From: Acaryochloris thomasi RCC1774
GTDB lineage: Bacteria; Cyanobacteriota; Cyanobacteriia; Thermosynechococcales; Thermosynechococcaceae
NCBI RefSeq assembly: GCF_003231495.1
Contig: NZ_PQWO01000009.1
Location: 120,001 to 152,000, forward strand
Direction: 5' to 3'
DNA length: 32,000 bases
A model generated the notes under the pieces. That model was not told the DNA's origin. It made no database searches and saw nothing but the letters and a program-made list of their open reading frames with translations. Below are positions 2,173 through 32,000 of this stretch, in pieces (the first letter of the stretch is position 1; each line of letters starts with the position of its first letter). The translations under genes and the position numbers were made by a program.

Positions 2173-3227
2173 TAGGGACTCTCCTGCGGCGACGGCTTCA
2201 ATTGATGAGTGCTATAGGGGTCGGCCATGCCTGCTAGGACGCGGCGGGAGCCTTTGAAGGGGCGGCGACCGTGGGCGGTGAGCATGTTATCTAGCAGCAA
2301 AACGTCTCCGGCCTGCCAGGGGAACAGAATTGTTTCTTGGGCGTAGGCAGCTCGAATGGTCGCTAGAGCCTCTTCAGGGATTTCGCTGCCGTCACCGAAG
2401 TAGGCGTTGCGGGGCCACTGTTTTTGGCTAAGGCTGGTTTGTAGCTGTTCTTGAGCGGCCCCTAGGTTTGAGACGTGGAAGAGATGGGCTTGGTTAAACC
2501 AGACGGTTTCGTGGGTGTGGGGATGGGTTGCGATCTCATCACAAATCTGTCGAGTCCGAAGCTGATCTTGCCCCCACCACTCGAACTCAATCGCTGCCTG
2601 CTGGCAATAAACCTCAACATCCTGATGATTTTCTGTTTGAAAGACTTCTTGCCAAGGGAGATCTAAACCGCCGCCATAATTGCGAATGTACAGAATGCCT
2701 AACCTTGAAAACTTCTCTTGAATCTCGGCAGGAATATGAGCTAAAACGCGCCGACTATCGGCAATCGGAGTTTCGCCTTGTTCCGTCGCAGGCTGTTCAC
2801 AGTAGAACGCTAGCGTCATCGGCCACTGGCGCGCATAGGCCATTTCGTTATGCAGTGGGATAGCCCGATCTGCAGGATATTCCGTGGAGGTATAGACTTT
2901 CCCTTCTACTTGGGTGCGAGGGGTAGAGCGATAGCTGTAGGTCATTGGGGTTTGGGAGATCGCTTCTATGAACTCTCCGAAGTCTGAGGCTCCGTTGATC
3001 AGGAAATTACGGAATAAAATGCCGCCGTGGGTTTTGAGGAGAGGGGAGATGCGATCGCGATTCTGCCCCGCCCAAGTCTTTAAGCTCAGCCCACTCACAG
3101 CAGGCTGGAAAATCAAAGGCAGTGACTGCGTTTCAGAGAAAAACGATTCCTGCACTAGTTCTTCGCTAGAGACCTGCACTAGACGACGGCGAGTCTTTAA
3201 TAATTTGAGAGAGGGTTTTGCAATCAT
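2172..3227 (-). CDS. Free-standing TauD/TfdA-family Fe(II)/2-oxoglutarate dioxygenase (SyrP-like; predicted aspartyl beta-hydroxylase)
   Basis: 351-aa ORF. It aligns by eye over its whole length with the C-terminal domain of the 2972-aa NRPS, e.g. GKVYTSTEYPADRAIPLHNE vs GKVYGSTPYPDDRAILFHNE and GDVLLLDNMLTAHGRRP vs GDVLMLDNMLMAHGRQP. The His-x-Glu (LHNE) plus distal His-Gly-Arg (AHGR) pattern is typical of the family. It is sandwiched by overlaps (ATGA upstream, TAATG downstream) between a C-terminated NRPS and an Asp-activating NRPS. Confidence 0.9.
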   Translation of the reverse strand: MIAKPSLKLLKTRRRLVQVSSEELVQESFFSETQSLPLIFQPAVSGLSLKTWAGQNRDRISPLLKTHGGILFRNFLINGASDFGEFIEAISQTPMTYSYRSTPRTQVEGKVYTSTEYPADRAIPLHNEMAYARQWPMTLAFYCEQPATEQGETPIADSRRVLAHIPAEIQEKFSRLGILYIRNYGGGLDLPWQEVFQTENHQDVEVYCQQAAIEFEWWGQDQLRTRQICDEIATHPHTHETVWFNQAHLFHVSNLGAAQEQLQTSLSQKQWPRNAYFGDGSEIPEEALATIRAAYAQETILFPWQAGDVLLLDNMLTAHGRRPFKGSRRVLAGMADPYSTHQLKPSPQESP

Positions 3228-18500: not shown

Positions 18501-21488
18501 CTTGCCATTGGGGAGCAAAGGAAATTTCTCTAGTACCACAAACAGGCTGGGCACCATGTAGGTGGGTAATGTAGCAGTTAAGAACTGCCGCAGTTCTGCC
18601 GCTGGAATCTGCAGTTCATTTGGACAAAGACAGTAGGCCAAAAGTTGAGCATCATTATCTTGAGCATCAGCAATAACGATCGCATCTGTAATGGCTGGAT
18701 GCTGGACAAGATGGGTCTCTATTTCACCGAGTTCTATCCGTAGACCGCGCAGCTTGACCTGATGATCAAGGCGTCCTAGAAATGCGATCGCACCATCACT
18801 TCGATAACAGGCCAGATCGCCTGTCCGATAGAGCCGTGCCCCTGGTTCTGCACTAAAGGGATTCGGAATGAAGCTAGTCGCTGTCTGCCCCGGACGATTG
18901 AGATAGCCCCGCGCCAGTCCAACGCTGCTCACAAATAGCTCTCCCGGAACGCCCACGGGGAGTCGCTGAAATCGATGATCTAATATGTAGATCTGAGTAT
19001 TAGAAATGGGCGTCCCAATAGCGGGTAGGGCATCGTCTTCAGCGTTGTACACGGTGGCGCAGATGGTCGTCTCCGTGGGACCGTAGGCATTGAAAAACCG
19101 CCGTCCTGATCGCCATTTTTTGACGAGTTCTGCTGAGCAGGCTTCTCCTGCTGTAATGATCGTGGTCAGGTCCGGCAGCGCTTGCGGATCGAGGGGCGCT
19201 AGGGCCGTCGGCGGCAGGGTGGCATGGGTAATCTTTCGACTGAGCAAGAATTCCTGTAAAGGCTTTCCGGGTAAGAGCTGATCGCTCGTTCCGATATGGA
19301 GGGTGGCTCCAGCGCTCCAGGTCATTACCATTTCCCAGACCGAGGCATCGAAGCTGGCTGAGGCAAACTGAATGACTTGACTATCGGGATCGAGCTGAAA
19401 CAGATCTTGCTGAGCCTGACTCAAATTGGTAAGGCCGCGATGGGTGAGCATGACACCTTTAGGTTTGCCAGTGGAGCCAGAGGTATAGATGACGTAGGCT
19501 AAGTGGTCCAGTGTTTGAGGAGAGCGAGGATTCTGCGCTGGCCCCCTAACCCCCCCACTGGTGGGGGACTTTGAGTTCTGTTTTGTTCTAGACAGGACAA
19601 TCAAATCTAGCCCTGTGGATACAGACAAATTAACGGCACTCTCCCCCCAGAATTGGGGGGCCGGGGGGGCCAACGCAGGACCATCACTAGAAAACAGATC
19701 AATATAGGCAGGCTGAGTCAGCAAAACCTCAGCCTCAGCCACCATCATCTGCAACCGCTGTTCAGGATAGGTCGGGTCAAGGGGAATATAGGCTCCACCC
19801 GCTTTCCAGACCGCAAGAATCGCCACCATCAATTGCGGAGAGCGGTCTAAACAGATGCCCACCAGCGTTTCTGGACCGACGCCGTGATTTTGCAGCTCTC
19901 GCGCTAGATCGTTGGCCTGCTGATTAAAGTCTTGATAGGTGAGCTGTAGGTTTTTGGATGAAATCGCAACCTCCCTCCCCCTCTCCACTGCCTGACGCTC
20001 AATCAACTCATGGATACAAAATTGTGGGTAATGGCCTTGGGTTTGATTCCAGTCCTGAAACTGCTGGTGTTCAGAGAAACTGAGCAACTCAAGTTGACCA
20101 ATGGGCTGATCGGGTTGAGCCAGAATATCTGAGAGCAGAATGTTCCAGTGCTCGACGAGTCGTTCAATGGTCGCCCTATCAAACAAATCACGGCTGTGTT
20201 CAAACCATCCTTGTATCGATTGATCCCCTTCAAACAACTGCAGGACTAGATCAAACGGTGAGGTCTGTAGGTCAAGGGTGACGGGCTTTAGGGTCAGATC
20301 CGCGCAGCGAAAAGATTGGCTTGGATCGGCCTGTAGGCCAAACATCACCTGCAGGAGGGGGGCTGAACTTTGAGATCGCACCGGCGCTAGAACTTCAATC
20401 AACTTCTCAAAAGGCAAATCCTGTTGATCATTCGCTTCCGCCACCACAGAGCGAACCTGCTGCAGGACTTGGCGAAAGGTCCAGGTGGGTTTCAACTGGG
20501 CGCGAAGGGCGAGGGTATTCACAAACACCCCTATCAATCCTTCAGTTTGCACTTGGTTACGATTCGCCACTGGAGAACCCACCAGCAAATCCGTCCGTCC
20601 TGTATAGCGATAGAGCAAAGTGTAGAAAGCCGCGAGACCCACCATAAACGGCGTCGCGTTGGACTGCTGTGCCAAGTGCCTTAGCTTTGCAGTCTGATCT
20701 GCCGATAAACTGACGCTGATTCTACCGCTCTGCATCGACTGAATTGCAGGACGAGAGCGATCTGAAGGAAGTTCAAATAGCGTCGGCACGTCTTGAAGCT
20801 GCTGCCGCCAATAGTCTAAAAGGGTATTTAATTTCTGCCCTTGAAGTTGCTGACGTTGCCACAAAGTATAGTCTGCATACTGGATTGAGAGAGATGGCAA
20901 ATCGGTTGTTAAGTCACTGTAAAGAGTTGCCAATTCTCTAATCAACACGCCCAGCGACCAGCCATCGGCAATGATGTGATGAGCATTGAAGAGCAGGACA
21001 TGATCCTCAGCACTCAACCGGAGAATCGTAGTCCGCAGCAGCGGCGCTTGGGATAGATCAAAGGGCTGCTTTGTGGTTTCAACGATCAGACGCTCCACCG
21101 CCTGCGGTGAGCCATTGTCCTGAAGTTCAATCATCGGCAACTGCCAATCTAGAGCCGCCACAATATCTTGGACTGGATCGCCTGCTTCATTTGTGATGAA
21201 CTGAGTTCGCAGGGATTCATGGCGTTCACAGAGCCGCTGAAAACAGTCGCGCAAGCGTTCAATCTCTAATAGTCCTTTAATTTTGACCGCTGCTGGCAGC
21301 GTCAGACCCTCAGGCTGTAGCTGCTGGAGAAGCCAGAGACGTTGCTGGGCAAAGGCGAGCGGAAATGCTGTTTGCTCACGGGGCTGGCGGGCAATCTCGC
21401 CCGACGCTTGCTTTTGCTGCAGCCGTTGAGTGAGCTGAGCAAGTTGCTCTGGAGATAGTCCAGCAATCTGGTTCGCTAAGTTACTCAT
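12570..21488 (-). CDS. Non-ribosomal peptide synthetase, C-A(Phe)-T-C-A(Gly)-T-C-TauD (fused dioxygenase domain)
   Basis: 2972-aa ORF. Order: C (HHIIADGWS); A1 (code by eye DAWTIAAICK, identical to the GrsA Phe code); T (FFELGGHSMLATQV); C (HHIIADGSS); A2 (DILQLGLIWK, Gly code); T (FFELGGHSLLATQV); C (HHIIADGWS); basic linker PPPKRKRFQRQKNR; then a TauD/TfdA domain of about 325 aa. ATGA overlap with the upstream gene at 21485-21488. Confidence 0.95.
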   Translation of the reverse strand: MSNLANQIAGLSPEQLAQLTQRLQQKQASGEIARQPREQTAFPLAFAQQRLWLLQQLQPEGLTLPAAVKIKGLLEIERLRDCFQRLCERHESLRTQFITNEAGDPVQDIVAALDWQLPMIELQDNGSPQAVERLIVETTKQPFDLSQAPLLRTTILRLSAEDHVLLFNAHHIIADGWSLGVLIRELATLYSDLTTDLPSLSIQYADYTLWQRQQLQGQKLNTLLDYWRQQLQDVPTLFELPSDRSRPAIQSMQSGRISVSLSADQTAKLRHLAQQSNATPFMVGLAAFYTLLYRYTGRTDLLVGSPVANRNQVQTEGLIGVFVNTLALRAQLKPTWTFRQVLQQVRSVVAEANDQQDLPFEKLIEVLAPVRSQSSAPLLQVMFGLQADPSQSFRCADLTLKPVTLDLQTSPFDLVLQLFEGDQSIQGWFEHSRDLFDRATIERLVEHWNILLSDILAQPDQPIGQLELLSFSEHQQFQDWNQTQGHYPQFCIHELIERQAVERGREVAISSKNLQLTYQDFNQQANDLARELQNHGVGPETLVGICLDRSPQLMVAILAVWKAGGAYIPLDPTYPEQRLQMMVAEAEVLLTQPAYIDLFSSDGPALAPPAPQFWGESAVNLSVSTGLDLIVLSRTKQNSKSPTSGGVRGPAQNPRSPQTLDHLAYVIYTSGSTGKPKGVMLTHRGLTNLSQAQQDLFQLDPDSQVIQFASASFDASVWEMVMTWSAGATLHIGTSDQLLPGKPLQEFLLSRKITHATLPPTALAPLDPQALPDLTTIITAGEACSAELVKKWRSGRRFFNAYGPTETTICATVYNAEDDALPAIGTPISNTQIYILDHRFQRLPVGVPGELFVSSVGLARGYLNRPGQTATSFIPNPFSAEPGARLYRTGDLACYRSDGAIAFLGRLDHQVKLRGLRIELGEIETHLVQHPAITDAIVIADAQDNDAQLLAYCLCPNELQIPAAELRQFLTATLPTYMVPSLFVVLEKFPLLPNGKVDRKALPHPEYQPREKPVVAPRNQTETDLVQIWQRVLNRQDVGIEDSFFELGGHSMLATQVITNIQTHFGIDLPLRQIFETPTISGLAASLNVQHSPAESRISQINRAGDLPLSFAQQRLWFLEQLETTGATYHITTKLHLQGHLQLTALQQSLDKIVERHEILRTRFIAHEGQPTVVIDPARPLDLPIIDLEGDSRQQQSEQLKQLLEQDTQASFDLAQGPLLRVKIVRVGLEDAIAIVTLHHIIADGSSTQIFLRELTEFYQTFSQGQELEIPQLPLQYVDYAHWQRQNLQGEFLATQLEYWQQQLTPLPASLDLPFDRPRPPTQTYAGETFNFKLSSPTDLRALAPSAGTTPYMVLLAVFKVLLYRYTGQTDIAIGSPIVNRNNADIEGLIGLFANTLVLRTDLAGNPSFSMLLQRVKDVALDAYAHPDLPLEKLVEELQLPRDLSHSPLFQVMFAHQTAPGQVTVPGLTITPDALATHTAKFDLTLTITETEAEITGVLEYNTDQFDLSTIERLAGHYQTLLEAIIKEPEQSIGNLPLLTALEQQQFIQGAQTQLPQWSGLHRWFEHQVEQTPESIALEFKSQTLTYAELNAQANQLARYLLVKGIAPEDRVGLLLNRSPEMVVALLAVLKAGGTYLPLDPAYPIERLRYMVADAQVKVLITDGEPLIESEVVINGAIDRVAIAKQTTQNLGLTTFPEQLAYVIYTSGSTGKPKGVQITHQAVINFLTAHGQSPGITADDVMFAVTSLSFDIAVLELLLPLVNGAKVLLASREMALDGIQLGQSLQQATLMQATPATWRLLLASGWTGQQHLKILSGGEALSSDLAAQLITCGSELWNLYGPTETTIWSTQQAVLAKEAVGIGFAIANTQVYILDSHLQQVPTGVTGELYIGGLGLARGYHQRPGLSAERFIPNPFSNKPGARLYRTGDLACVQKDGSIRHLGRIDDQVKVRGFRIELGEIETCLNQHPLITQAVVISAEGADTLVAYGQLQEETEPKLNELQQWLRISLPDYMMPAQFIWVSEFPLTPNGKLDRRALASTEGSNSKRSHAFVTPQTPTEKQLAQIWIEILGIEQAGVDDNFFELGGHSLLATQVVSRIRSHFSVELPLQLLFSSPTIATLATHIDLAPPLQSATRLVPISRQQPLPLSFAQERLWFMDQLTPGNSAYNEPAIVLLEGRLDIAALQSSLNVIVERHEILRTTFCLESEVSTQISEIQHRYFTGPPSPPILGGNKLTSETLPPELGGRGGNAEGHACVGGQPVQLIAESLTLNIPVVDLQDLTLDEQELVLEKLAIANTQTPFTLSQGPLLRTKLLKLDPEKHVLLFTMHHIIADGWSKGVLIQDLSQLYTQIVSKRDVTLPPLPIQYADFAFWQRQQDLEPQLTYWRQQLGGDLPTLALPLDSPRPAQRSDQGVTVSLTLSPHLSEALVKLSQQEDTTLFMTLMAGFKILLSCHTQQRDIWVGTDVANRIRSELEGLIGFFVNLLVLRTDLSGNPSFKALLQRVKTVALGAYDHQDIPFAQLVDVLQPERQEGLLPLFQVLFVLQNAPMPAIELPDLKMTPTQPEAQVAKFDLALFIQETPEGLVINWNYSTDVFQDTTINRLAQQYTDLLQKLVEAPETSIEAIISQFTAPPPKRKRFQRQKNRAVSPTEVVGFSTHPTGVGLYQPQLPAVNLAAWAQEQRPQLEQQLQQSGALLFRGFDIPDASAFEDVAKAMCPELFGEYGDLPRTEVGGKVYGSTPYPDDRAILFHNESSHLEQWPMKIWFFCVQPSVSGGETPIVDCRQLYQRLRPEVRDRFAQKKLMYERNFVPGLDVSWQDFFQTDDRTVVEWRCQSKGVECIWLEDGGLRTRQVRDAIATHPQTQDQVFFNQLQLHHFSYIDPETQASLRSLLGGDCLPRQVYYGDGSEIEPEVLAEVNAAYQVCAQQFTWQKGDVLMLDNMLMAHGRQPYTGTRKIVVALGQMIDSPSTQSAT
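12573..13545 (-). other. TauD/TfdA dioxygenase domain fused to the C-terminus of the 2972-aa NRPS
   Basis: LLFRGFDIPD, GKVYGSTPYPDDRAILFHNESSH (His-x-Glu), GETPIVDCRQ, DNMLMAHGRQPY. It is a paralogue of the free-standing ORF at 2172-3227. Confidence 0.9.
14736..14829 (+). repeat. G6/C6 palindromic MITE-like element, complete short copy (copy B), in frame inside the third C domain
   Basis: Sequence: ctgcattgcccccccggccccccaattctggggggagag + 17-nt core + tttccccccagaattggggggctaggggggccagtgaa. The arms are imperfect inverted repeats, with the inner 19 nt identical. Host translation is FTGPPSPPILGGNKLTSETLPPELGGRGGNAEG. Boundaries are uncertain by about 10 bp. Confidence 0.75.
19533..19678 (-). 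repeat. G6/C6 palindromic MITE-like element, long copy in inverted orientation (copy C), in frame inside an A domain
   Basis: The left arm ctgcgctggccccctaacccccccactggtgggggactttgag is a diverged CTAG/CTAA-type arm with a different loop. A core of about 70 nt follows. The right arm is ctctccccccagaattggggggccgggggggccaacgcag. Host translation is ALAPPAPQFWGES...SKSPTSGGVRGPAQNPRS, located between the A2 and A3 cores. Confidence 0.75.
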
Positions 21489-24400: not shown

Positions 24401-27400
24401 CATTTGATGCGAAAGGCGATCGCGCAGTTGTTCAAGTTGCTGTTGTTTCAGGTCACTAGATAGAGAACGCCAGTCTAGAACGCTCATCTCGTAGGGCGGC
24501 AGATCTGCGAGCACCTGCTGCTGACCGTCAGGCAAAATCACCGTTCGCAACACGGGGTGGCGATCAATCACCTGTTGGAAAGCTTGCTGCAGGCGGTGGC
24601 AATCTAATTCCTGCCCCTCGAATTCTGCATAGACATGGGCGGCAATGTTCCCCATTTCAAAGGCACCGCTTCGGCCAATCCAGTAGGCAGTCTGAATATC
24701 GTTGAGCGGGAACGGCTGGTGACGCTGCGTGGGATTGAGTTCAATGTTGGGTAAGGTCTCGACCATGCCATCTAAATTGGCTAGAATCTGAGTCGCTAAG
24801 TCGGCAATGGTGGGACTGGTCAAGAACTGAACCAAGGGCACTGAATAGCCGAACTGCTTCTCTAGATCAAATTTGATCTCGGTGGTCATGATCGAATCGG
24901 CAGCCAAAGAACTAAGCGGTGTCGTGGCCGTAATTTGTTTTGGGTTTATGCCAATGGCACGGGCAAACCGTGTCTTTAAATCGCGCTCTAATTCGGCTTG
25001 ACGTTGTTCAGGGTTAAGAGAGGCAAAACTTTCGCGCGAAATTGCGGTCTCAGTGACTTTTGCAGATGGGGTAGGGCTGACCCTAGCACCCGAGGTGGCG
25101 AGATAGCTCCAATACCGCTGCCGCTGAAATGGATAGGTCGGCAATGGAATCCGTTGATGTTTAAAGCCGCGATAAAAACTGTCCCAATCAACTGTAAACC
25201 CCTGTTGATAGAGCTTTCTTAGGCTTAGCAGAATGTTGTCTGGCTGAGCTGCGATGGTCCAGTGGTCGCAGGTTCCCCAGCTTTGGGGCAGGTTGCCCAT
25301 AATCAGAAACTGCTCTGGCCCTTGAGGGGGTGCGATGGTCTGCCGATCGCCAGATCGAAGCCAGTCTAATAGGGTGGCGGTATCGACGGGCGTATCCGTT
25401 GAATCGCTGTAGAGAATGCCTGTGGCAGGCTGCAGTTGTTCGATGGGTGTTGCTTTGATAAGCCAGTGGAGGGCTTGCTCTAAGGTGAAGTATCCGGCTT
25501 GGCAGGCTGCGATTGTGCTTCCCATCAATCCACTCGGCTGAAAACCCCAGGATTGCCACAGTTCAGCAAGGGCGTAGGGCAACACAAAATTCAGAATGTC
25601 TGGATCTGACGTGGATTTGAAATCAATCAGATCTGCTTTTAGCTCTGACAAAATCTGGTTGGCTTGGTCAATGGTGGCCCGGAACACCGGATAAGTTTCA
25701 TAGAGTTGTTGGCCCCAAGTCAGGCTCTGCTTTTGTTCTGAAGGGAAGAAGAAAATTAGGTCGGGTGTTGTTTGTTGTATAGAAGATGAATCTACAGTGT
25801 ATAAAGATGTTTCGGAACTACCTTGAAGAGCTTGCGCTGGCCCCCCCGGCCCCCCAACCTTAGTGGGAGAGTCGCTGACGTTGGTTTGCTTTCCCCCCAG
25901 AATTGGGGAGCTAGGGGGGCAATGCAGGGTTGACTGGTTTTCCTCTAGTGATTTATATACATCGTTAGAGTACTGGGCTGTATTATTAGTTTCTAAATAT
26001 TCCTCTAGCGCTTGCTGTAGTTGGGGTATAGAGTTAACGACAAATGTACATCGATGGAGGAAGTGAGATCGCCCCACCCCTGCTGTAAAACAAAGATGAC
26101 CCAAGTCAGTCTCAGGGTGCGCCTGCAAAAACTGAAGATATCGATGAATCAGCTCGACCAAAGCCCCAGGAGTCTTTGCAGACAGAGGCAATAGATATAA
26201 AGGTCGTGTTTCTGATTGAACCGTTACAGTTGGAGCAGATTCCAGAACGGCATGGGCATTAGTCCCACTCATGCCAAAGGAGTTGATACCTGCAAGCTGT
26301 GGCCCCGAATGCTGAGGCCAAGGCGTTAGCTCAGTGGGAATTTTGGCCGGAATTTCACCTAGATCAATCTCAGGATTGAGGGTCTTTAAATTTAGATGGG
26401 GCGGCAGTTGCTGATGCTGCATCGATAGCACGACCTTGAGCAAGCTTGCCATCCCCGAAGCGGTCTCGGTGTGGCCGATGTTGGTCTTTACCGATGCGAT
26501 GTGGAGCGGGTCTTGTTGCGATCGCCCTTCTTTAAACACCTGACTCAGCGCCCGAACTTCAATGGCATCTCCCAGCGGCGTCCCTGTTCCTTGTGCTTCG
26601 ACATACTGAATCGCGCTAGCGGCCACGTTGGCCTGTGCCAACGCCGCTCGAACCACCGTCTGCTGAGCTGCACCATTGGGGATCGTTAATCCTCCACTGG
26701 CACCGCCATGATTGCAGGCCGTCCCTTTAATGACGGCCAAGATATTGTCGCCATCGGCTTGAGCATCTTTGAAGCGCTTGAGGGCCACGACCGCACAGCC
26801 TTCAGAGCGTACATAGCCATCAGCAGCAGCATCAAAGGTCTTGCAATGGCCGTCTGTCGCCATCATTCGGGTTGCAGAGAAGACGATATTTGATTCTGGC
26901 GAAAGCAGCAGATTCACGCCCCCCGCTAAAACCAAATCGCATTCTTCGTTACGCAAACTCTGACAACCCAAATGGACTGCCATCAATGAAGATGAACAGG
27001 CCGCATCAAGGGCCATATTCGGGCCCTGCAGCCCTAAAACATAGGACAACCGTCCTGCAGCAAAACAGAAACCACTTCCGGTCCCCGTGTAAGCATCAAT
27101 TCCTTCAGGGGTCTTGGCCTGCAGATTCGCATAATCGGAGGTGCCAATGGCAACATATACACCTGTTCGGCTCCCTTTGAGCTGCTGTGGTGCATAGCCT
27201 GCTCGTTCAAGCGCCTCCCAACTGACCTCTAGCAAAAGGCGCTGCTGCGGATCCATTGCAGTGGCTTCACGAGGACTAATGCCGAAAAAATCGGGGTCAA
27301 ACTGATCCACCTGATCTAAGAAACCGCCATGTCTGGTGTAGGTTTTCCCAGGCACGCTGGGATCGGCATCAAAATAAGCATCTACATCCCACCGCTGCTG

Positions 27401-27652
27401 AGGGACTTCTGTAATCGGGTCACGGCCCGACTGGAGTAATTGCCAATAAGCCTCTGGATCGTTGACGCCACCAGGAAATCGACAGCCCATGCCGACAATC
27501 GCGATTGATTCAGGCTGCTTTAGAGTCTCTAATTCCTCATGCAGCTCGTAGGCTAAAAGCGCAAGCCGTTTGGGAGAGAGGGTTTTAATGTGGTTGAGAA
27601 AATCACTCACTGGGGTCTTGCCTTGCAAATTTTTCGTCAAACAGCCGATCAA
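21485..27652 (-). CDS. Hybrid PKS/NRPS, KS(QGTGT variant)-AT remnant-ACP-Cy-A(Cys)-T
   Basis: 2055-aa ORF. KS: IAIVGMGCRFPGG, DAACSSS, NIGHTETASG. Degenerate AT. ACP: LSSLAADSIMT. Cy: FPLNDIQTAYWIGR, DNLLVDGAS. A: LAYVIYTSGSTGTPKG, SGDWIP, SLGGATEASIW; code by eye DLYNLSLIWK (Cys). T: FFELGGDSLLATQL. An alternative GTG start at 27610-27608 would reduce the overlap with the upstream PKS from 50 to 8 nt. Confidence 0.95.
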   Translation of the reverse strand: MIGCLTKNLQGKTPVSDFLNHIKTLSPKRLALLAYELHEELETLKQPESIAIVGMGCRFPGGVNDPEAYWQLLQSGRDPITEVPQQRWDVDAYFDADPSVPGKTYTRHGGFLDQVDQFDPDFFGISPREATAMDPQQRLLLEVSWEALERAGYAPQQLKGSRTGVYVAIGTSDYANLQAKTPEGIDAYTGTGSGFCFAAGRLSYVLGLQGPNMALDAACSSSLMAVHLGCQSLRNEECDLVLAGGVNLLLSPESNIVFSATRMMATDGHCKTFDAAADGYVRSEGCAVVALKRFKDAQADGDNILAVIKGTACNHGGASGGLTIPNGAAQQTVVRAALAQANVAASAIQYVEAQGTGTPLGDAIEVRALSQVFKEGRSQQDPLHIASVKTNIGHTETASGMASLLKVVLSMQHQQLPPHLNLKTLNPEIDLGEIPAKIPTELTPWPQHSGPQLAGINSFGMSGTNAHAVLESAPTVTVQSETRPLYLLPLSAKTPGALVELIHRYLQFLQAHPETDLGHLCFTAGVGRSHFLHRCTFVVNSIPQLQQALEEYLETNNTAQYSNDVYKSLEENQSTLHCPPSSPILGGKQTNVSDSPTKVGGPGGPAQALQGSSETSLYTVDSSSIQQTTPDLIFFFPSEQKQSLTWGQQLYETYPVFRATIDQANQILSELKADLIDFKSTSDPDILNFVLPYALAELWQSWGFQPSGLMGSTIAACQAGYFTLEQALHWLIKATPIEQLQPATGILYSDSTDTPVDTATLLDWLRSGDRQTIAPPQGPEQFLIMGNLPQSWGTCDHWTIAAQPDNILLSLRKLYQQGFTVDWDSFYRGFKHQRIPLPTYPFQRQRYWSYLATSGARVSPTPSAKVTETAISRESFASLNPEQRQAELERDLKTRFARAIGINPKQITATTPLSSLAADSIMTTEIKFDLEKQFGYSVPLVQFLTSPTIADLATQILANLDGMVETLPNIELNPTQRHQPFPLNDIQTAYWIGRSGAFEMGNIAAHVYAEFEGQELDCHRLQQAFQQVIDRHPVLRTVILPDGQQQVLADLPPYEMSVLDWRSLSSDLKQQQLEQLRDRLSHQMLDPHAWPLFEVCLARLDEQTVHVFLSIDNLLVDGASLGIICREWGHFYTSLDNDLPTLKLSFRDYVLALQSFEPSERYLQSKNYWQARLQDLPSAPELPLAVAPAQITRPRFVRRTARLSADQWQLLKEQATQLGLTPSGALLAAYTEILAIWSKSRRFCVNLTTFNRLPIHPQVQSLVGDFTSLTLLAVDYREVGTFEVRSQQLQNQLWQDLEHSLVSGVSVLREMMAQTQEQVAMPVVFTSLLANPQLQNSSTFNTDWLGKLVHSIAQTPQVWLDHQVYEEDDELVYNWDVVEGLFPDGMVDAMFSAYGQLLEKLALHSQTWQETQPLPITHVQPQSTQAPLTTALLQDGLVSQAQHQPQHLAVITPTLRLTYGELCQRAQQVGQRLRRLGVQANELVAISMEKGWEQVVAVYGILMAGAAYVPIDPALPMERRDHLLDQGNIKWVLSQNHLQSGMAWPVQIQIIAVDSEALRQEYDAPLTPLQKPTDLAYVIYTSGSTGTPKGVMIDHQGAMNTIEDINHRFEITPQDRILALSSLSFDLSVYDIFGTIAAGGTLIIPAARDVKDAAVWVRLIEKHQVTIWNTVPALMQMLITREPESLQSLRLILMSGDWIPLALPEKIRAVCPESQIISLGGATEASIWSILYPINEIDPSWRSIPYGRAMRNQQFYVLNEHLNPCPVWVPGHLYIGGSGLAQGYWGEPEKTAASFIAHPISGECLYRTGDLGCYRPDGEIEFLGREDQQVKLRGYRIELGEIETALEQHPDVSAAAALVIGASPQKLVACIVLKELPSDQEPGGQDGAGDPSSSGQASVLTQFLAQKLPDYMVPEGFLCLDALPLNANGKVDRRHLQTLWVESPLASSVGYVAPRNALETAVADLWANLLQQDKVGVLDNFFELGGDSLLATQLMARVRQTFQVEVPLRLLFQDPTVATIATAIAEGLAAQVNEELLAELADIAEPETIAPGSQS
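23408..24721 (-). other. Heterocyclization (Cy) domain
   Basis: FPLNDIQTAYWIGR at the N-terminus. DNLLVDGAS (24293-24319) matches the DxxxxDxxS motif that replaces HHxxxDG in Cy domains. Confidence 0.85.
25109..25765 (-). other. Degenerate, internally deleted acyltransferase remnant plus post-AT linker
   Basis: FFFPSEQ stands in for the GQGSQ start. LWQSWGFQPSGLMGSTIAACQAG stands in for the GHSxGE active site, which is shortened and lacks His. Only about 95 aa follow before the post-AT linker LYQQGFTVDWDSFY...LPTYPFQRQRYW, and no HAFH/YASH region is visible. Confidence 0.75.
25833..25927 (+). repeat. G6/C6 palindromic MITE-like element, complete short copy, partly decayed (copy D), in frame in the KS-AT linker
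   Basis: Sequence: tgcgctggcccccccggccccccaaccttagtgggagag + core + tttccccccagaattggggagctaggggggcaatgcag. Host translation is HCPPSSPILGGKQTNVSDSPTKVGGPGGPAQAL. Confidence 0.75.
26228..27511 (-). other. Ketosynthase domain with Cys-Gln-His instead of Cys-His-His
   Basis: The active-site Cys codon is at 26996-26998 (DAACSSS). The expected EAHGTGT reads EAQGTGT, with the Gln codon CAA at 26591-26593 (plus-strand ttg). The second His is retained in NIGHTETASG. Confidence 0.85.
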
Positions 27653-30600
27653 CGTCGTCGTCTGAGAGCTGTGAAATCTTGTCTAAGGTCGTCTCCGCAA
27701 CGGGGGCGGTTGCCGGAACTGACGGTGCTTCCCAGCCCAGCGTCGATTTGGCGAGATAGGTCGCCAAAGCATTGACGGTGGGATGCTCAAAGGCGGCCAC
27801 GGCGGGAATCGTTTCGCCCAGGCTGGTTTCTAGGTGATTTTTGACTTCTAGGGCCATGAGCGAATCCATGCCGCTTTCAAACAGTCCGCGATCAGGATCG
27901 ATGGCACTCGGAGACGAAATCCCCATCACCTGAGCCACAATTGCCTGGACATGGTTTTTGAGAGCCTGTAGTCGAGCTGCGGGGGGCAAGGCTTCCCAGT
28001 CTTGAAGTAGAGCTGGAGGGGGTTGGGAGTCTGAAGCTGAAGCTTGATTAGCAACATCAGCAAGCAGGGGTTGTGATTTAGCAGTAGGGAATAGATCAAA
28101 AAACTCTGACCAAGGCACGGGTAAGAATGCAATCTGTCCCTGCTCGTGCATGAGTTGCCCTAATGCCTGAAGTCCCTGCTCTGGTGTCAGAGTCCAGGAT
28201 TCGGGAAGGAGACGTTGTCCGGCTTTGATGGAACGCGATCGCAACCCAATCTCAGACCAATCTCCCCAGTCAATACTGAGGGCTGGTAAACCCAATGACC
28301 GTCGATGATGAGCAAGGCTATCTAAATAAGAATTCGCCATGCTGTAGCCGCTGAGCTGTTGCCCGACGGAACCCAGTAAACCTGCCCAAGAGGAAAACAG
28401 AACAAAGTAATCGAGGGATTGTTCTGCAAAATACTGATGGAGATTCCAGGCTCCTGCAGCTTTGGGACTCAGGATCTTGTCTAGCTGTTCTAAATCAACC
28501 TGCTCTATTGGAGCAAGCTGGGGTGGCTCCATTGCTAAGTGAAAAACGCCCTGAATAGGTGGCACATCGACGGACTCGATCTCTTGGGCTAGCTGCTCGG
28601 GGTCCGCGACATCTGCTGTGGCGAGATGAACCTGGGTTCCTTGGGCTTCAATGGCCTGAATCGCTTGAATCTTCTGGAAAGCTGTATCTTTGCTAGGGAG
28701 AGACAGCCATTGATGACGAGGTGGTAGAGACGTGCGACCTAATAGGATCAGATGCTTAGCACCTTGTTCTGATAGCCAGGTCGCGACCCGTAGACCTAAA
28801 TCGCCGAGACCGCCTGTGATTAGGTAGCTGGTAGCTTTGATCTGGGCTGAGTTCTGGGCTAGAGCCGCTCGGTACGGGGTGAGGTGAGGTGAAAAACTTT
28901 GGTTCTGGCGAAATGCGATTTTTCCATGCTGCATTGTCCTTCCAGGTTTGGAAGGAGAGACCCGAGAGTCCATCTGCTTTCCCCCCAGAATTGGGGGGCT
29001 AGGGGGGCCAGTGAAATCCTGCCGGGAAGTGTCCCGATCTAGATAGGCATCATTCGTTCTGCTTTGTGTGTTCTCTATTTCTAAGTTCTGCCCAGGAAGC
29101 ACTTCGCTCTGCGTTGGCCCCCCCGGCCCTCCAATTCTGGGGGGAGAGTGCCTGGAGTTGGTTGGTTTTTTCCTAAGATGGGGCTGAATACTTTGCAGCA
29201 GATCGGCTGCCGCTTGAGAGACGGACGCTGCTGGATCTAAATCAATGAGACCGCCGTACCGCTGGGGTTGCTCGACCGCCAACACTTGGCCTAAGCCCCA
29301 CAGCATTGATTGCGTGGCGTTGGTTTGACTCTCCGCAACTGACTGACTGCCCTGCGTCACTAGCCAGAGTGGAGTCTCAACATTGGCAGCTTCCATCGCC
29401 TGAATTAACGCTACAGGTGTGGCTGTATTCCAGGACGTTTCCAGGGGTGACTGATTCAGATCGTTCAATCCCCATAGGTAAACCACCCCTCGATAATCAT
29501 CAGAGGTCGATGAAGTAAACAGAGACTGAAATGAGGTCAGATCCGCTGAGTCTGTTTCAATGATTTGGCATATTTCCCCTCGAGATTGAAGCAATTCCGC
29601 AAAGGCTTTTCCGATACCAGCGAGATCGCAAAAAACAAGCCAAGTTCCGGGCTGTTGGCTGCGTTGACTAGAAGCCACTAGCACCGCTTGCTGAGATAGA
29701 CCGTCACGATTGGCTGCGATGATCTCAGCATCAAACTGGTTAGCCTGGAGCAGTTGCTGCCATTGTGCTGAACTAATTAGCGGATAGCTGGGTCTCAAAT
29801 CAGTATCGGTAAACGACCACCATCCCGGCGTCAGACCAAAAATCAGATCGAGCCAAGCCTGGGGTTCCATTCCCTCTAGCGCAATCAAGAGACCACCCGG
29901 TTCTAAGAGTTGGTGGATATGCTCCACAGTTTGCTGGAGATCGGCGGTGGCATGAAGGACGTTGGCAGCCAAAATGATGTCAAACGACTGAGACTCAAAT
30001 CCTTGTTCACTGGGTGCCTTTTCAATATCCAGCAGCCGATAGTCTATGAACGGATAGTCAGCAAACTTCTCTTCTGCCTTGGCGGTGAATAAAAAGGAGA
30101 CATCGGTGAAGGTATATTCAGTCCTGTAGCCGGGAAGCTGGGGCAAAACGTAGGCTGTTGTCCCGCCGGTACCTGCCCCAATTTCTAGAATTCGAATGGT
30201 GCGATCTGTAGGGAGATCTTGGATGGCGGTTGCGATCGCATCGACAACCCACTGATTCGCCACCTGAGCCGCCGGAGAATCTTGATACAGCGCCTCAACA
30301 TCGGCAACCGATCCGTCAGGGAACAATAGATTGAGCGGATCTTGGCCCTGCAAAACCGACGCTAATCCCTGTCCACATCGCCCCAACAAACTGATCTCAG
30401 CCTGACAAGCCGGATAATGAGTTTGAAGACCTTGAAGACGCTGGGCTGGCGCTTCAAGGGTGGGCACCTTCTTGATCTGCCATTGGTTTGCCCCTTGAGC
30501 AATGAGAATATCTTGCTCCGTCAAAACCTCAATCAGGCGATGCAGGAGCCGGTGATGCTGGGGCTGGATCTGCTGCCGTAGGGCAGCAAAAGGAAACGGC

Positions 30601-32000
30601 TGTCCAGGCTGCAAGTTCAGATCCATATCCCAAAAAGCCCAGAGAATAAAATCTCGACTCAAGGTATTGAGCTGGGGCAATAGATCTCGATAGACATCTA
30701 GCTTTTCTATACGAGTCTGCTGACGCACTTGATTAGCAATTTGGGACACAGAATCAAAGGTTAGAGTCGTATCCTGTAGTTCCGGCAAAGAGCAAGGACG
30801 CCACTCCACTTGATAGAACCAGTCTGCAATCTGGGAGCAAGGGATACTCATCGGCTGCAGCCGAATGCCCTGAAGCGTCATTTTGACGGTGCCGTCAGCG
30901 TCTAGAACCCGCACGTCCCCTGTCAGTTCGTCGGCCTGAGAGGTGAGAACTGCATGGCTATAAAGTGGGCCGTCAAGCGCCTCTAGAATGGTGAGTTCAC
31001 CGAGACCAATGGGTAAATAACTAACGGTGTCGGCTTCGGGTAGCGTTGCCCAAAGAACCTGTAGACAGGCATCTAACAGCGCGGGATGAGTACTGTAGTC
31101 GTCGGCATTGAGATGAGCGGGGAGCTTGATCGTTGCGATCGCTTCTCCTTCTGTTCGCCAAAGCTGCTCAATCCCCTGAAAGCTTGAATCTAGCTCAACC
31201 CCACGCGCTTTTAAGGTTTGGTAGAACGCCTTGTTTGCGATCGCATCACAGCGTCCTTGAATAGCGGCAATCGTGTTCCTTTTTAGATCTTGAACATCCT
31301 GAGCCGGGTCTTCTGAATCTGCCGCCATCTCTGGTAAGTGAACCGGAATGCTAACAGAGGCTTCAGTCAGTTCTTTACAGGCCGCGCGCAGCCGATTGAG
31401 ATGGGGAAGGGTTTGCAGAATTAAATCTGGATGCGGCCCAAAATCAAGGAGGCAGGCGATTTCGTTAACGCCGATATGATGAAGCTGCTCCACGAGGCTC
31501 TGACAGCTCTCAGAAGTGCCCAGCAAGGCTCTGCCCTCGCTATAGAATTTCTCGAAAATCCGATCCGTCATCTGATCAAGATCGGTCTCAGAAAGAGAGC
31601 CCAGATCGACAGACTGTCCTCGGCTGTAGCTCAACCCCTGCAGCAGCGGCAGATTGGCTTTCAGATAGCTGCAGTAGGGATGCCGCACTTCTTCCCGCAC
31701 TGTAGTCAAGTCATGGCCCATGTAGGTGTGCAGCGTCACCGTTACCTTGCCAGGGCAATGACCATATTCCACACTCGTTTGACGATACAGCGCAATATTC
31801 TGCGCTAGCGTCGCTAAATCTTGATCAAAGAGATGCGTGAGTAAATTTGCACCTAACTCCCCTGCTTTAGCAAAAGTTTTTGGGTTGCTAGCCGCCGTCA
31901 CCCATAGCGGGAGCTGCTTCTGTACCGGTGTCGGATAGACTCTAATCTCACGGAACTGACCATCACCACCCTGCACCGAAATAGAGTCGCCTCGCCAGAG
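27603..32000 (-). CDS. Type I polyketide synthase, 5'-truncated at window edge: ...LLM monooxygenase domain-DH (C-terminal half)-C-MT-KR-ACP
   Basis: The ORF track starts this gene at GTG 31976. However, the frame stays open to 32000 (LWRGDSISVQGGDG...) and the LLM domain is N-terminally incomplete, so the gene continues upstream of the window. Motifs: LLM (LWVTAASNPKTFAKAGELGANLLTH...VNEIACLLDFG); DH half (FYQTLKARGVELDSSFQGI, HPALLDACLQ); C-MT (ILEIGAGTGGTT, DIILAANVLHAT); KR (YLITGGLGDLG, SPKAAGAWNLH, FVLFSS, GYSMANSYLD); ACP (LFESGMDSLMALE). Confidence 0.9.
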   Translation of the reverse strand, partial: LWRGDSISVQGGDGQFREIRVYPTPVQKQLPLWVTAASNPKTFAKAGELGANLLTHLFDQDLATLAQNIALYRQTSVEYGHCPGKVTVTLHTYMGHDLTTVREEVRHPYCSYLKANLPLLQGLSYSRGQSVDLGSLSETDLDQMTDRIFEKFYSEGRALLGTSESCQSLVEQLHHIGVNEIACLLDFGPHPDLILQTLPHLNRLRAACKELTEASVSIPVHLPEMAADSEDPAQDVQDLKRNTIAAIQGRCDAIANKAFYQTLKARGVELDSSFQGIEQLWRTEGEAIATIKLPAHLNADDYSTHPALLDACLQVLWATLPEADTVSYLPIGLGELTILEALDGPLYSHAVLTSQADELTGDVRVLDADGTVKMTLQGIRLQPMSIPCSQIADWFYQVEWRPCSLPELQDTTLTFDSVSQIANQVRQQTRIEKLDVYRDLLPQLNTLSRDFILWAFWDMDLNLQPGQPFPFAALRQQIQPQHHRLLHRLIEVLTEQDILIAQGANQWQIKKVPTLEAPAQRLQGLQTHYPACQAEISLLGRCGQGLASVLQGQDPLNLLFPDGSVADVEALYQDSPAAQVANQWVVDAIATAIQDLPTDRTIRILEIGAGTGGTTAYVLPQLPGYRTEYTFTDVSFLFTAKAEEKFADYPFIDYRLLDIEKAPSEQGFESQSFDIILAANVLHATADLQQTVEHIHQLLEPGGLLIALEGMEPQAWLDLIFGLTPGWWSFTDTDLRPSYPLISSAQWQQLLQANQFDAEIIAANRDGLSQQAVLVASSQRSQQPGTWLVFCDLAGIGKAFAELLQSRGEICQIIETDSADLTSFQSLFTSSTSDDYRGVVYLWGLNDLNQSPLETSWNTATPVALIQAMEAANVETPLWLVTQGSQSVAESQTNATQSMLWGLGQVLAVEQPQRYGGLIDLDPAASVSQAAADLLQSIQPHLRKKPTNSRHSPPRIGGPGGPTQSEVLPGQNLEIENTQSRTNDAYLDRDTSRQDFTGPPSPPILGGKQMDSRVSPSKPGRTMQHGKIAFRQNQSFSPHLTPYRAALAQNSAQIKATSYLITGGLGDLGLRVATWLSEQGAKHLILLGRTSLPPRHQWLSLPSKDTAFQKIQAIQAIEAQGTQVHLATADVADPEQLAQEIESVDVPPIQGVFHLAMEPPQLAPIEQVDLEQLDKILSPKAAGAWNLHQYFAEQSLDYFVLFSSWAGLLGSVGQQLSGYSMANSYLDSLAHHRRSLGLPALSIDWGDWSEIGLRSRSIKAGQRLLPESWTLTPEQGLQALGQLMHEQGQIAFLPVPWSEFFDLFPTAKSQPLLADVANQASASDSQPPPALLQDWEALPPAARLQALKNHVQAIVAQVMGISSPSAIDPDRGLFESGMDSLMALEVKNHLETSLGETIPAVAAFEHPTVNALATYLAKSTLGWEAPSVPATAPVAETTLDKISQLSDDDVDRLFDEKFARQDPSE
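28242..28835 (-). other. PKS ketoreductase catalytic subdomain
   Basis: Rossmann motif YLITGGLGDLGL, with the Lys (SPKAAGAW), Ser (LFSS) and Tyr (GYSMAN) positions present. A 2-residue insertion lies near the Tyr, so activity is uncertain. Confidence 0.75.
28929..29015 (+). repeat. G6/C6 palindromic MITE-like element (copy E1): diverged left arm, intact right arm, in frame in the KR inter-subdomain loop
   Basis: Sequence: ctgcattgtccttccaggtttggaaggagag + core + tttccccccagaattggggggctaggggggccagtgaa. The right arm plus flank (28978-29017) is 40/40 identical to 14792-14831. Host translation is FTGPPSPPILGGKQMDSRVSPSKPGRTMQ. Confidence 0.7.
29109..29198 (+). repeat. G6/C6 palindromic MITE-like element (copy E2): intact left arm, possible decayed right arm
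   Basis: ctgcgttggcccccccggccctccaattctggggggagag has one mismatch to the reverse complement of the arm at 19639-19679. Downstream, gttggttggttttttcctaagatggggctgaatactttgcag weakly resembles core plus right arm (compare copy D, gttggtttgctttccccccagaattgggg...). Host translation is ...RKKPTNSRHSPPRIGGPGGPTQSE. The right boundary is weak. Confidence 0.6.
29817..30299 (-). other. PKS C-methyltransferase domain
   Basis: SAM motif I ILEIGAGTGGTT, then FTDVS, DIILAANVLHATADL and LLEPGGLLIALE. Confidence 0.85.
30843..31244 (-). other. C-terminal half of a PKS dehydratase fold (second hot-dog), following the LLM domain
   Basis: The GxxYGPxFQ-like FYQTLKARGVELDSSFQGI and the HPALLDACLQ (DxxxQ) motif are present. 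No HxxxGxxxxP half occurs between the LLM domain and this segment. Confidence 0.6.
31377..32000 (-). other. Luciferase-like (FMN-dependent) monooxygenase domain embedded in the PKS, C-terminal part
   Basis: Residues 1-200 of the tracked ORF resemble the natural-product LLM domain family found inside PKS/NRPS proteins: PLWVTAASNPKTF..GANLLTHL, TVREEVRHPYCSYLK, GTSESCQSLVEQLHHIGVNEIACLLDFG. Recognised by recall of the family, not by a search. Confidence 0.75.

Follow-up and report, generated by a model that had tools for sequence, protein, structure and literature searches.

The ketoreductase (KR) of an LLM-DH-cMT-KR-ACP polyketide synthase carries an in-frame insert of 255 nt (85 codons) at positions 28929-29183 of the 32,000-nucleotide stretch of DNA analysed here (the window). 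The insert consists of two copies of a palindromic repeat, E1 and E2, with a filler between them. It is missing from 59 of 60 homologous KRs, and it is old and inherited, because a 64%-identical orthologue (P0001/L001) carries the same E2-filler-E1 composite at the same KR site. One decayed arm of E1 retains a perfect hairpin in which two stem pairs have changed on both sides. Selection on the hairpin does not follow from this single compensated case, which is best explained by strand-symmetric GC>AT decay of a palindrome built from a C-run and a G-run.

Composition of the insert

The host KR and its insert comprise the following features, in window positions.

28251-28928, minus strand: beta-hairpin IAFRQNQ.., then the KR catalytic subdomain (Pfam KR, residues 1050-1242)
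28929-29017, minus strand: E1, one palindromic repeat copy, with its outer arm (left on the plus strand) decayed and its loop and inner arm canonical (nhmmer E = 1.2e-12)
29018-29108, minus strand: filler of 91 bp; the E1 and E2 termini on either side of it face outward
29109-29183, minus strand: E2, second repeat copy, in the orientation and reading frame of E1 (nhmmer E = 6.8e-9)
29184-29645, minus strand: KR structural subdomain, upstream of the insert, with the last helix ..AAADLLQSIQ

The element terminus CTGCATTG is present at 28929-28936 of E1. The left arm that follows reads CCTTCC (28938-28943), AGGTTT (28944-28949) and GGAAGG (28950-28955) and additionally lacks 8 nt of the outer C-run. 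The other arm of E1 (28977-29008) is canonical, as is the terminus CCAGTGAAAT that extends to 29017. The inner arm of E2 (29109-29148; CTGCGTTGG CCCCCCC GG CCCTCC AATTCT GGGGGG AGAG) keeps the terminus CTGCGTTGG and is canonical except for one C>T (CCCTCC, 29127-29132), and its outer arm (29166-29183, TTTTTTCCTAAGATGGGG) is a truncated, decayed remnant. The encoded peptides are FTGPPSPPILGGKQMDSRVSPSKPGRTMQ for E1 and PHLRKKPTNSRHSPPRIGGPGGPTQ for E2. A protein search with the 86-aa insert peptide found no matches, with only 6 candidates sharing query words, and is uninformative on distribution.

The original prediction had described a composite two-element insertion of ~270 bp in the KR. Its composite, element-derived character and its length of ~85-90 residues hold, and the size is corrected to 255 nt. 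E2, which had been taken to end at 29198, ends at ~29183, since bases 29184-29201 encode LLQSIQ, native conserved KR residues outside the element. The filler contains no native KR sequence and no recognisable repeat, and it is unalignable with the filler of the orthologue. A proposed resemblance between the spacer segment gttctgctttgtgtgttct and the core of another window copy (copy C, below) was not recovered by BLAST at word size 7 and E <= 10; searched against all loci, the filler and the copy C core were unrelated to each other or to anything else.

The host ketoreductase and its predicted loop

Judged by its sequence, the host domain has the Rossmann motif and the catalytic Lys, Ser, Tyr and Asn of a type I PKS ketoreductase. 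It matches Pfam KR with E = 8.8e-56, the NADPH-binding motif TGGLGDLG (T1054-G1061; Rossmann TGGxGxxG) is intact, and R1081 and the catalytic residues K1172, S1195, Y1211 and N1215 are all retained. Alignment with solved KR structures places ~80 extra residues between the two KR subdomains. In an AlphaFold2 model of the insert-bearing KR (pTM 0.84), the KR outside the insert is intact and confidently predicted, and model residues 177-246, between a helix (150-166) and a strand (250-254), have pLDDT < 50 and are without secondary structure. The Pro/Gly/Ser/Arg-rich stretch foreseen inside the KR is borne out, as a region of predicted disorder. We infer that the insert is translated, unspliced, as a Pro/Gly/Ser/Arg-rich disordered surface loop of this length, which the KR appears to tolerate. 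A structured RNA or self-splicing intron was considered and rejected: Rfam gave no intron or other RNA family match at E <= 1 across 28000-30000, and only the interior pairs of E1 covary.

It is worth noting that in P0021, a fully reducing homologue, the enoylreductase (ER) domain is inserted only ~19 residues downstream of this site. As in fully reducing PKS modules with an ER insertion, the inter-subdomain region of the KR accommodates a large insertion; here, in contrast, the loop lies before rather than after the beta-hairpin and would be a disordered repeat-derived peptide, not a folded domain. Over a long evolutionary span, a megasynthase KR can apparently bear 85 loop residues of repeat origin next to the natural ER site, and the insert site may be informative for the choice of permissive sites in PKS engineering.

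The repeat family

The window contains six copies of the repeat (A, B, C, D, E1 and E2), all of them intragenic and leaving every ORF open. The four copies outside the KR are listed below.

9057-9120, minus strand: copy A, one clear arm, in frame, close to the N-terminal end of ORF 3224-9520
14735-14830, minus strand: copy B, in frame, the best-preserved short element and the reference here; terminus variant CCAGTGAAAT common with E1
19530-19680, minus strand: copy C, long form with a ~75-nt core, in frame in the NRPS ORF 12570-21488
25832-25927, minus strand: copy D, in frame in the next ORF, past its KS-linker

The core 19-mer occurs seven times in the window at <= 3 mismatches, against 0 expected from shuffles. 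From the outside inwards, an arm comprises a C/G run, a short linker and a CCCCCC-AATTCT-GGGGGG hairpin; the repeat termini read TGCAYTNG...CNARTGCA, and short-form units are ~95 nt long, long-form units ~150 nt. Over 29 nt, the two arms of copy B show 93% complementarity. Two inverted arms fold as a ~95-nt super-hairpin (-34.7 kcal/mol, z = -6.3). Copies B, D, E1 and E2 share one reading frame (GPPSPPILGGKQ...SPPRIGGPGGPxQ), and A and C use another (LAPPAPQF/LWGES). Copy D is orthologous too, with a copy at the matching position in L001; a CTAG/CCGG linker swap between the copy D orthologues hints at gene conversion.

The core motif was found at >120 genomic loci from many cyanobacterial orders and a few Chloroflexota assemblies, and 910 kb of collected loci contain 163 repeat copies. 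Outside the window, 16/120 copies (~13%) are located in long frames without stops, among them PKS, NRPS and STAND-WD40 genes, and ~87% are intergenic. The flanks of the repeats in other genomes are often parts of larger mosaic repeats. A metagenome collection held the TGCA-terminated subfamily at only 3 loci, too few for added power, and a plasmid BLAST with copy B returned only 2 records, probably owing to the low-complexity filter. A literature search of incomplete coverage, which leaves novelty unproven, found no description of the motif strings or of in-frame cyanobacterial repeats. Odd Pro/Gly-rich stretches in cyanobacterial gene clusters may be such repeats, a point of interest for annotation.

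Among known systems, Rickettsia palindromic elements (RPEs) are palindromic repeats found in frame in protein-coding genes, according to Ogata et al. 2000 and 2002 as summarised in PMC10969869. The present family resembles RPEs in being small, palindromic and multi-copy without a transposase gene, in lying repeatedly in ORFs with the frame kept, in adding peptide at fold-compatible sites (with translation presumed here) and in being retained in orthologues. The family differs from RPEs in its hosts (cyanobacteria and the few Chloroflexota assemblies), in C6/G6 arms that encode Pro/Gly-rich peptide, in the intergenic position of most copies, and in the concentration of six copies, two of which make up a composite, in one NRPS/PKS cluster. 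Because RPEs come from AT-rich Rickettsia and the repeat here is a C6/G6 element of cyanobacteria, we presume that no sequence relation is to be expected. By analogy, the repeat may work like an RPE, although we do not class it as one, and a family common to cyanobacterial orders would enter ORFs about as readily as RPEs do in Rickettsia.

The family also recalls REP sequences and the REPIN doublets mobilised by RAYT transposases, REPINs being extragenic (PMC3116915). A GC-rich hairpin in each arm, the inverted doublet and an abundant, dispersed distribution are common to both; unlike REPINs, however, the six window copies are intragenic, as are those in long open frames elsewhere. The small size, absence of transposase capacity, terminal inverted repeats and many dispersed copies are those of a MITE, and like Nezha of cyanobacteria and Correia of Neisseria the repeats are short, non-autonomous and land in genes.

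The perfect stem in the decayed E1 arm

28937-28956, no strand assigned: hairpin in the decayed E1 arm, TCCTTCCA / GGTT / TGGAAGGA, 8 perfect pairs

The stem comprises the 6-bp stem, a flanking T and A, and an A/T closing pair. DNA folding gives -7.5 kcal/mol (z = -3.9), a value equalled by 0/200 shuffles. Relative to the canonical CCCCCC..GGGGGG, two stem pairs have changed from C-G to T-A, and the stem is still perfect with 3/4 loop bases and the outer run changed. The prediction that the two central stem positions had changed on both sides with the stem kept perfect is thus confirmed, the stem being actually 8 bp long, and so is the decay of the copy D left arm (CCCCCC AACCTT AGTGGG), on one side only.

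If substitutions are neutral and independent between sites, 7 of them in the 18-nt hairpin would leave the six stem pairs fully complementary with p = 0.002-0.014, and four stem changes fall into two complete pairs with p = 0.03; the multiple-testing scope of these values is ~5-12 inspected arms. Unless a tandem hotspot is assumed and multiple testing is allowed for, such a pattern is not trivially expected. Polarised against the canonical arm over 21 nt, the changes are 0 window-specific, 7 L001-specific, 4 shared and 3 ambiguous (p = 0.008 to 0.046). Since there are no window-specific changes and the relative rates of the KR protein are symmetric between the window and L001 lineages, the E1 arm in the window is unusually static. 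A faster L001 lineage as the reason for this was rejected by the same symmetric relative-rate tests.

The arm could in principle be native KR or unrelated sequence that is merely arm-like. Its divergence from the consensus, and nothing more, speaks for such an origin, which is contradicted by the alignments: homologous KRs have nothing at the insert position; the CTGCATTG terminus and the AGAG junction flank the segment at canonical spacing from the intact partner arm; and nhmmer aligns model positions 16-95. We give this origin a next to negligible chance.

Stem changes across the family

The stem had been interpreted as covariation, reflecting selection or templated repair. Across the family it is a single case. 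In 61 aligned elements, the only interior changes on both sides are E1's own two cells, whereas the rest of the left hairpin has 10 cells that break a pair, and no compensated interior pair exists outside E1. Stem changes are exclusively single-sided among ~200 other arms, including the ~20 arms with stem changes in a free-stem census, and among 68 elements whose partner arm has no canonical hairpin, E1 alone keeps a drifted one. The larger alignment of copies therefore has no excess of compensatory over single-sided stem changes. The orthologous arm of L001 (ATTACT GAGGGT AGAAAG) forms no significant hairpin (z = -0.22) and retains 4/6 pairs, against ~3.75 expected under pure transitions. Long-range pairing of the left and right arms as a conserved structure was rejected, as the 61 elements display no covariation in this stem, with observed values below those of shuffles. 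Hairpin covariation, if true, would be evidence for structure-dependent maintenance of selfish DNA in genes, for which the present data are insufficient.

Template-switch mutagenesis at imperfect palindromes is a well-documented mutational mechanism of E. coli and would yield exactly such a complementary change in the second arm. A CC>TT change in one arm of the E1 hairpin may accordingly have been copied to the other by quasipalindrome template switching, the nascent strand folding back during replication, so that the stem became perfect again with no selection. This self-templated correction is consistent with the 8-bp stem staying perfect beside a changed loop and outer run, with its low nominal chance probability (0.002-0.03) and with the absence of window-specific changes since the L001 split. 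Against it, ~20 single-sided changes in the family stand uncorrected and none is corrected; within the window itself, copy D and E2 keep uncorrected single-sided changes; none of the 68 decayed partner arms besides E1 keeps a hairpin; and the L001 arm later broke. We regard correction of this kind as possible but unlikely.

A further possibility is that the CCTTCC/GGAAGG stem was inherited from a mobile source subfamily, whose enzyme would need the hairpin shape and not its sequence. Hairpins do persist across differing stems (C5/G5 and C6/G6), the outer pair is U-A in 43 elements and C-G in 13, and an CCCCTCTCCC/GGGAGAGGGG family occurs in L103 and L032. However, the 910 kb of element-rich loci contain no second CCTTCC..GGAAGG copy, the exact E1 arm has 0 matches in the metagenome collection, and the 8-nt deletion and loop changes of E1 are typical of decay in place, which makes such a source very unlikely.

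Proposed history of the insert

Based on the above data, we propose that two ~95-bp palindromic non-coding repeats and an unrelated 91-bp filler were already fixed, in frame, within the KR when the window and L001 lineages split. The site would be the loop leading from the last helix of the structural subdomain to the beta-hairpin preceding the catalytic subdomain, and the mRNA would be read through without splicing to give the disordered surface loop. Later, both outer arms would have decayed by GC>AT changes and deletions, with both inner arms staying near the family consensus. The TT/AA of the stem most likely comes from one mutation class, probably tandem CC>TT, striking the central part of the C6 run on both strands of the palindrome. 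Because a C-G pair becomes T-A when C>T occurs on either side, complementarity survives without selection. Most stem changes in the family are G>A or C>T, ~1/6 are tandem, and a central GG>AA double change, uncompensated, recurs in L035 and L005/L092. Taken whole, this history of an old, read-through and tolerated two-copy insert with decayed outer arms and a stem from one mutation class is the one we consider probable. The low stem probabilities, the static window arm and the synonymous conservation of the inner arms (below) count against neutral decay of the stem.

Inner-arm conservation and a nuclease gene

Between the orthologues, 23/28 third codon positions of the inner arms are conserved versus ~0.45 in the flanks (p = 6e-5), and the arms are 85-88% identical where other synonymous sites are near saturation. 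This conservation of third positions indicates that some non-neutral or conversion process affects the element sequence at the locus. Pairing of the inner arms across the filler is predicted in both orthologues, with 0 substitutions compensated.

Local selection on the hairpin as a structure of the DNA or mRNA, acting for instance through translation, mRNA stability or protein binding, could account for the perfect E1 stem, the static window arm and the conserved synonymous sites. The RNA fold of the composite is also strong (z = -5.0), with the E1 hairpin separate and the inner arms pairing across the filler. Yet the hairpin is lost in L001, none of the window-versus-L001 differences in the inner-arm pairing forms a compensated pair, the long left-right stem lacks covariation in the aligned elements and Rfam offers no match; we hold such selection to be highly improbable.

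Alternatively, the canonical arms may be actively maintained and not merely young. They would be maintained by ongoing gene conversion with the many copies in the genome as donors, or, more boldly, a DUF559 enzyme could act as a cognate partner that mobilises the repeats or performs motif-specific repair, an arrangement resembling REPIN/RAYT with another nuclease fold. Small DUF559 endonuclease genes were flanked by repeats in 7/9 cases examined. They encode Vsr-like PD-(D/E)XK nucleases and have hairpin modules on both sides in several cyanobacteria, which we treat as a lead only; in this the family departs from REPIN/RAYT. Were maintenance active, which seems quite unlikely, the drifted yet perfect E1 stem would have arisen as a by-product of repair directed at hairpins. 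The arms themselves occur in two states, either near consensus or departed from consensus and decaying fast.

Architecture of the composite insert

The window has a G+C content of 52%, is abundant in GCGATCGC and is filled by six long minus-strand ORFs that encode a hybrid NRPS/PKS assembly line. The core 19-mer of the repeat occurs seven times in the window, as opposed to none expected from shuffles, and the ORFs stay open through all six window copies, with one reading frame for B, D, E1 and E2 and another for A and C. The simplest reading of these open frames is that the repeats would be translated.

Repeat copies and main features (window coordinates)
9057-9120: copy A, in frame in a neighbouring NRPS/PKS ORF, frame LAPPAPQF/LWGES (common to A and C)
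14735-14830: copy B, in frame in a neighbouring NRPS/PKS ORF, E1/E2 frame (GPPSPPILGGKQ...GGPGGPAQ)
19530-19680: copy C, in frame in a neighbouring NRPS/PKS ORF, frame LAPPAPQF/LWGES
25832-25927: copy D, in frame in a neighbouring NRPS/PKS ORF, E1/E2 frame (GPPSPPILGGKQ...GGPGGPAQ)
27603-31976, minus strand: host ORF of the composite insert; product domains luciferase-like monooxygenase, DH, C-methyltransferase, KR and ACP
28929-28936: E1 element terminus, CTGCATTG
28938-28955: E1 hairpin, CCTTCC-AGGTTT-GGAAGG

The sequence features of the original prediction are all present as described, apart from the end of E2 and a likeness of the filler (the stretch between E1 and E2) to the core of copy C. 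E2 had been extended to 29198; its true end lies near 29183, and 29184-29201 encode the native, conserved LLQSIQ. The resemblance of the filler to copy C is non-significant. The second arm and terminus of E1 (to 29017) are identical base for base to copy B, the best copy of the window. The inner arm of E2 (29109-29148) is one C>T away from consensus, and its outer arm is a truncated, G>A-decayed remnant. Rfam gave no match for the insert region.

Predicted effect on the KR

The insert takes the place of a linker of ~7 residues between the last helix of the KR structural subdomain (..AAADLLQSIQ) and the β-strand IAFRQNQ, which leads into the catalytic subdomain. In an AlphaFold2 model built with 61 sequences (mean pLDDT 82.8, pTM 0.84), the sole low-confidence stretch is residues 177-246, which lie within the insert and lack secondary structure. 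Aligned with solved KRs, each subdomain matches on its own, and ~80 extra residues separate the two. The catalytic Lys, Ser, Tyr and Asn are present, as is the NADPH-binding motif. In P0021, an ER-containing homologue, a 332-residue ER enters 19 residues downstream of the insert position, which marks this part of the KR as naturally permissive. The composite insert is probably harmless to the KR.

Age of the insert

In the KR-region alignments, only one of 60 homologues has residues opposite the insert; the proposed element-derived composite insertion within the KR is confirmed. This protein, P0001 (64% identical; Logan assembly of SRR14117742), is encoded by locus L001, whose DNA has the same layout at the same site: E2 loop and intact arm, filler, E1 intact arm and loop, decayed arm. 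The insert is missing in the next closest homologues, P0002 (53%) and P0098 (from a Leptolyngbyaceae genome), and no arm was found in the fetched locus L002. The L001 contig stops within a perfect arm where the window has copy D, and the window and L001 proteins align up to ...VL RCPPGPPILGG and ...TL HCPPSSPILGG. Since insert and copy D are both found in the window and in L001, at least two insertions in the cluster are older than the split of the two lineages. The composite insert is, judged by this sequence comparison, old. At L001:4407-6029, a break in the DH region splits the orthologous PKS gene into three reading frames (4407-5795, 5629-5976 and 6029-9211), which may reflect an assembly error or early pseudogenisation.

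Origin of the TT/AA stem

The original prediction read the CCTTCC/GGAAGG stem of E1 as covariation. The double change with retention of the stem holds: E1 differs from the canonical 18-nt hairpin by seven changes with 6/6 stem pairs still complementary, an outcome whose simulated probability ranges from 0.002 to 0.014 with the transition fraction; once four stem hits are fixed, two complete pairs have a probability of 0.03. The larger sample does not support the covariation reading. Among ~200 arms collected with free stems and anchored on the loop and outer run, ~20 have stem changes, all single-sided and most of them G>A or C>T. In a 61-element alignment, the interior both-sided changes are E1's two cells only; the rest of the left hairpin has 10 cells in which a pair is broken. 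The outermost pair alone truly differs on both sides (U-A in 43, C-G in 13) and divides the C5 from the C6 subfamilies.

The TT/AA stem is thus a single suggestive case, best explained by strand-symmetric decay: C>T on both strands of a C-run/G-run palindrome would produce T-A pairs without further cause. Of the stem changes, about one in six is a tandem double change. Tandem GG>AA (CC>TT) is recurrent in six-base runs (L035:2537-2636, L005:6217-6304, L092:13-99, L028:843-977), with four of five cases at the central two positions, and the central GG>AA stands without compensation in L035 and in the L005/L092 outer run. These cases hint that the middle of the C6 run is a mutational hotspot; two tandem events there, one per strand, would coincide with a probability that we estimate to be of the order of 0.1-0.2. 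In the window, moreover, 5-12 arms are open to inspection.

The main rival to such decay is self-templated (quasipalindrome) correction. Among 68 elements whose partner arm lacks the canonical hairpin, perfect stems on the inner side are no commoner than in control flanks, and E1 is the sole arm-derived drifted hairpin. The exact variant arm has no other occurrence in a metagenome collection scan, and is therefore not a propagating subfamily.

Selection would act on a hairpin (28937-28956) that, counting both the flanking T and A and the A/T closing pair, has a perfect stem of 8 bp around a GGTT loop (DNA folding energy -7.5 kcal/mol, z = -3.9); such selection is unlikely because the orthologue L001 has lost the hairpin. 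The L001 arm, ATTACT GAGGGT AGAAAG, keeps 4/6 pairs, as compared with ~3.75 expected from independent C>T and G>A hits given how far it has changed, and folds no better than shuffles. In favour of covariation, when 21 aligned bases are polarised by the canonical arm, four changes are shared with L001, seven are L001-specific, none is window-specific and three are ambiguous (p = 0.008-0.046), and the KR proteins of the two lineages evolve at symmetric rates. The shared changes take in three of the four TT/AA bases, so the TT/AA state is probably ancestral.

Conservation of the inner arms

In the flanking coding sequence, window and L001 proteins are 66-71% identical, with third codon positions only 42-49% identical. 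The two inner arms (window 28977-29017 and 29109-29148; L001:7688-7734 and 7816-7870) are 85-88% identical in DNA and match at 23/28 third positions (p = 6e-5), and the filler and outer arms are ~40-50% identical. Comparison of inner and outer arms therefore points to two states, one close to consensus and one in rapid decay. The conservation may come from gene conversion by other copies, from a reduced mutation rate of the intact motif, or from DNA-level selection. RNA folding predicts that the inner arms pair across the filler in both orthologues; the inner-arm differences between them include no compensated one, and across the family there is no covariation in the long arm-to-arm stem.

The repeat family

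CCCCCCAGARTTGGGGGGC, searched for in one genome per species, matched at least 120 loci. Hosts among the matches listed include Moorena, Okeania, Waterburya, Pseudanabaena, Leptolyngbyaceae, Petrachloros, Pantanalinema and Acaryochloris, together with a few Chloroflexota assemblies. In most copies, a C5/G5 arm (GCCCCCTAAATCCCCCAATTCTGGGGGAC) is joined to one of the C6/G6 type (TCCCCCCAGAATTGGGGGGCTAGGGGGGC); in the window subfamily, as in Petrachloros, Acaryochloridaceae and Altericista, both arms are C6/G6 and the termini are TGCA. An HMM search of the fetched loci found 163 non-overlapping copies in 910 kb. Stop-free frames reaching at least 300 nt on both sides hold 16 of the 120 evaluable copies, in genes that include a PKS, an NRPS (two copies), a STAND-WD40 protein and a subtilase. 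The family behaves like the Rickettsia palindromic elements. Palindromic repeats living in frame in genes are a known kind, to which the composite insert belongs; no description of the family motifs was found in the searchable literature.

Many copies carry a second conserved motif ~20-30 nt past the C6/G6 arm, ACTTTTCA(A/G)A(C/T)A.C(C/T)TCT(T/A)AG or ...TGTGTGTACACGGTAG (for example L004, L005, L010, L014 and L015; also L016, L022, L071 and L048); the repeats are therefore mosaic, as are the BIMEs of E. coli. Small secondary insertions, including AATTCATAGCCCTAACGGGCATTCCAGAAA and the palindrome GAGCGAGGGATTGCTCGCTC, lie exactly in the C5/G5 hairpin loop (L011:4442-4553, L048:6658-6778, L078:7864-7967 and L114 near 2838), which suggests that still smaller elements target this loop.

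Chloroflexota-labelled assemblies with the same arm are L023, L028, L067 and L115 (all four Thermomicrobiales) together with L068 and L072, with full two-arm elements in L028; they could reflect inter-phylum transfer or mis-binned cyanobacterial contigs. In Moorena bouillonii (L047:2269-6441, L031:1733-4255), the N-terminal part of a P-type ATPase (HMA, E1-E2 ATPase, partial hydrolase) and the C-terminal two thirds of CobN share one stop-free frame, linked by a single element; this may be a gene fusion mediated by the repeat or the junction of a rearrangement.

DUF559 genes

DUF559 proteins are Vsr-like PD-(D/E)XK endonucleases. No DUF559 gene lies within the window. Small DUF559 genes (PF04480, E = 3e-39) have repeat hairpin modules on both sides in 7/9 cyanobacterial cases examined (L126:1475-2210, L048:108-560, L073:6650-7330, L111:2-340, L032:2750-3600, L127:415-1100 and L130:345-930). 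This recalls, as an unproven parallel, the RAYT genes bordered by REP/REPINs. In L126, the DUF559 stop codon is provided by the element's CCCCCCTAGCCCCCC.
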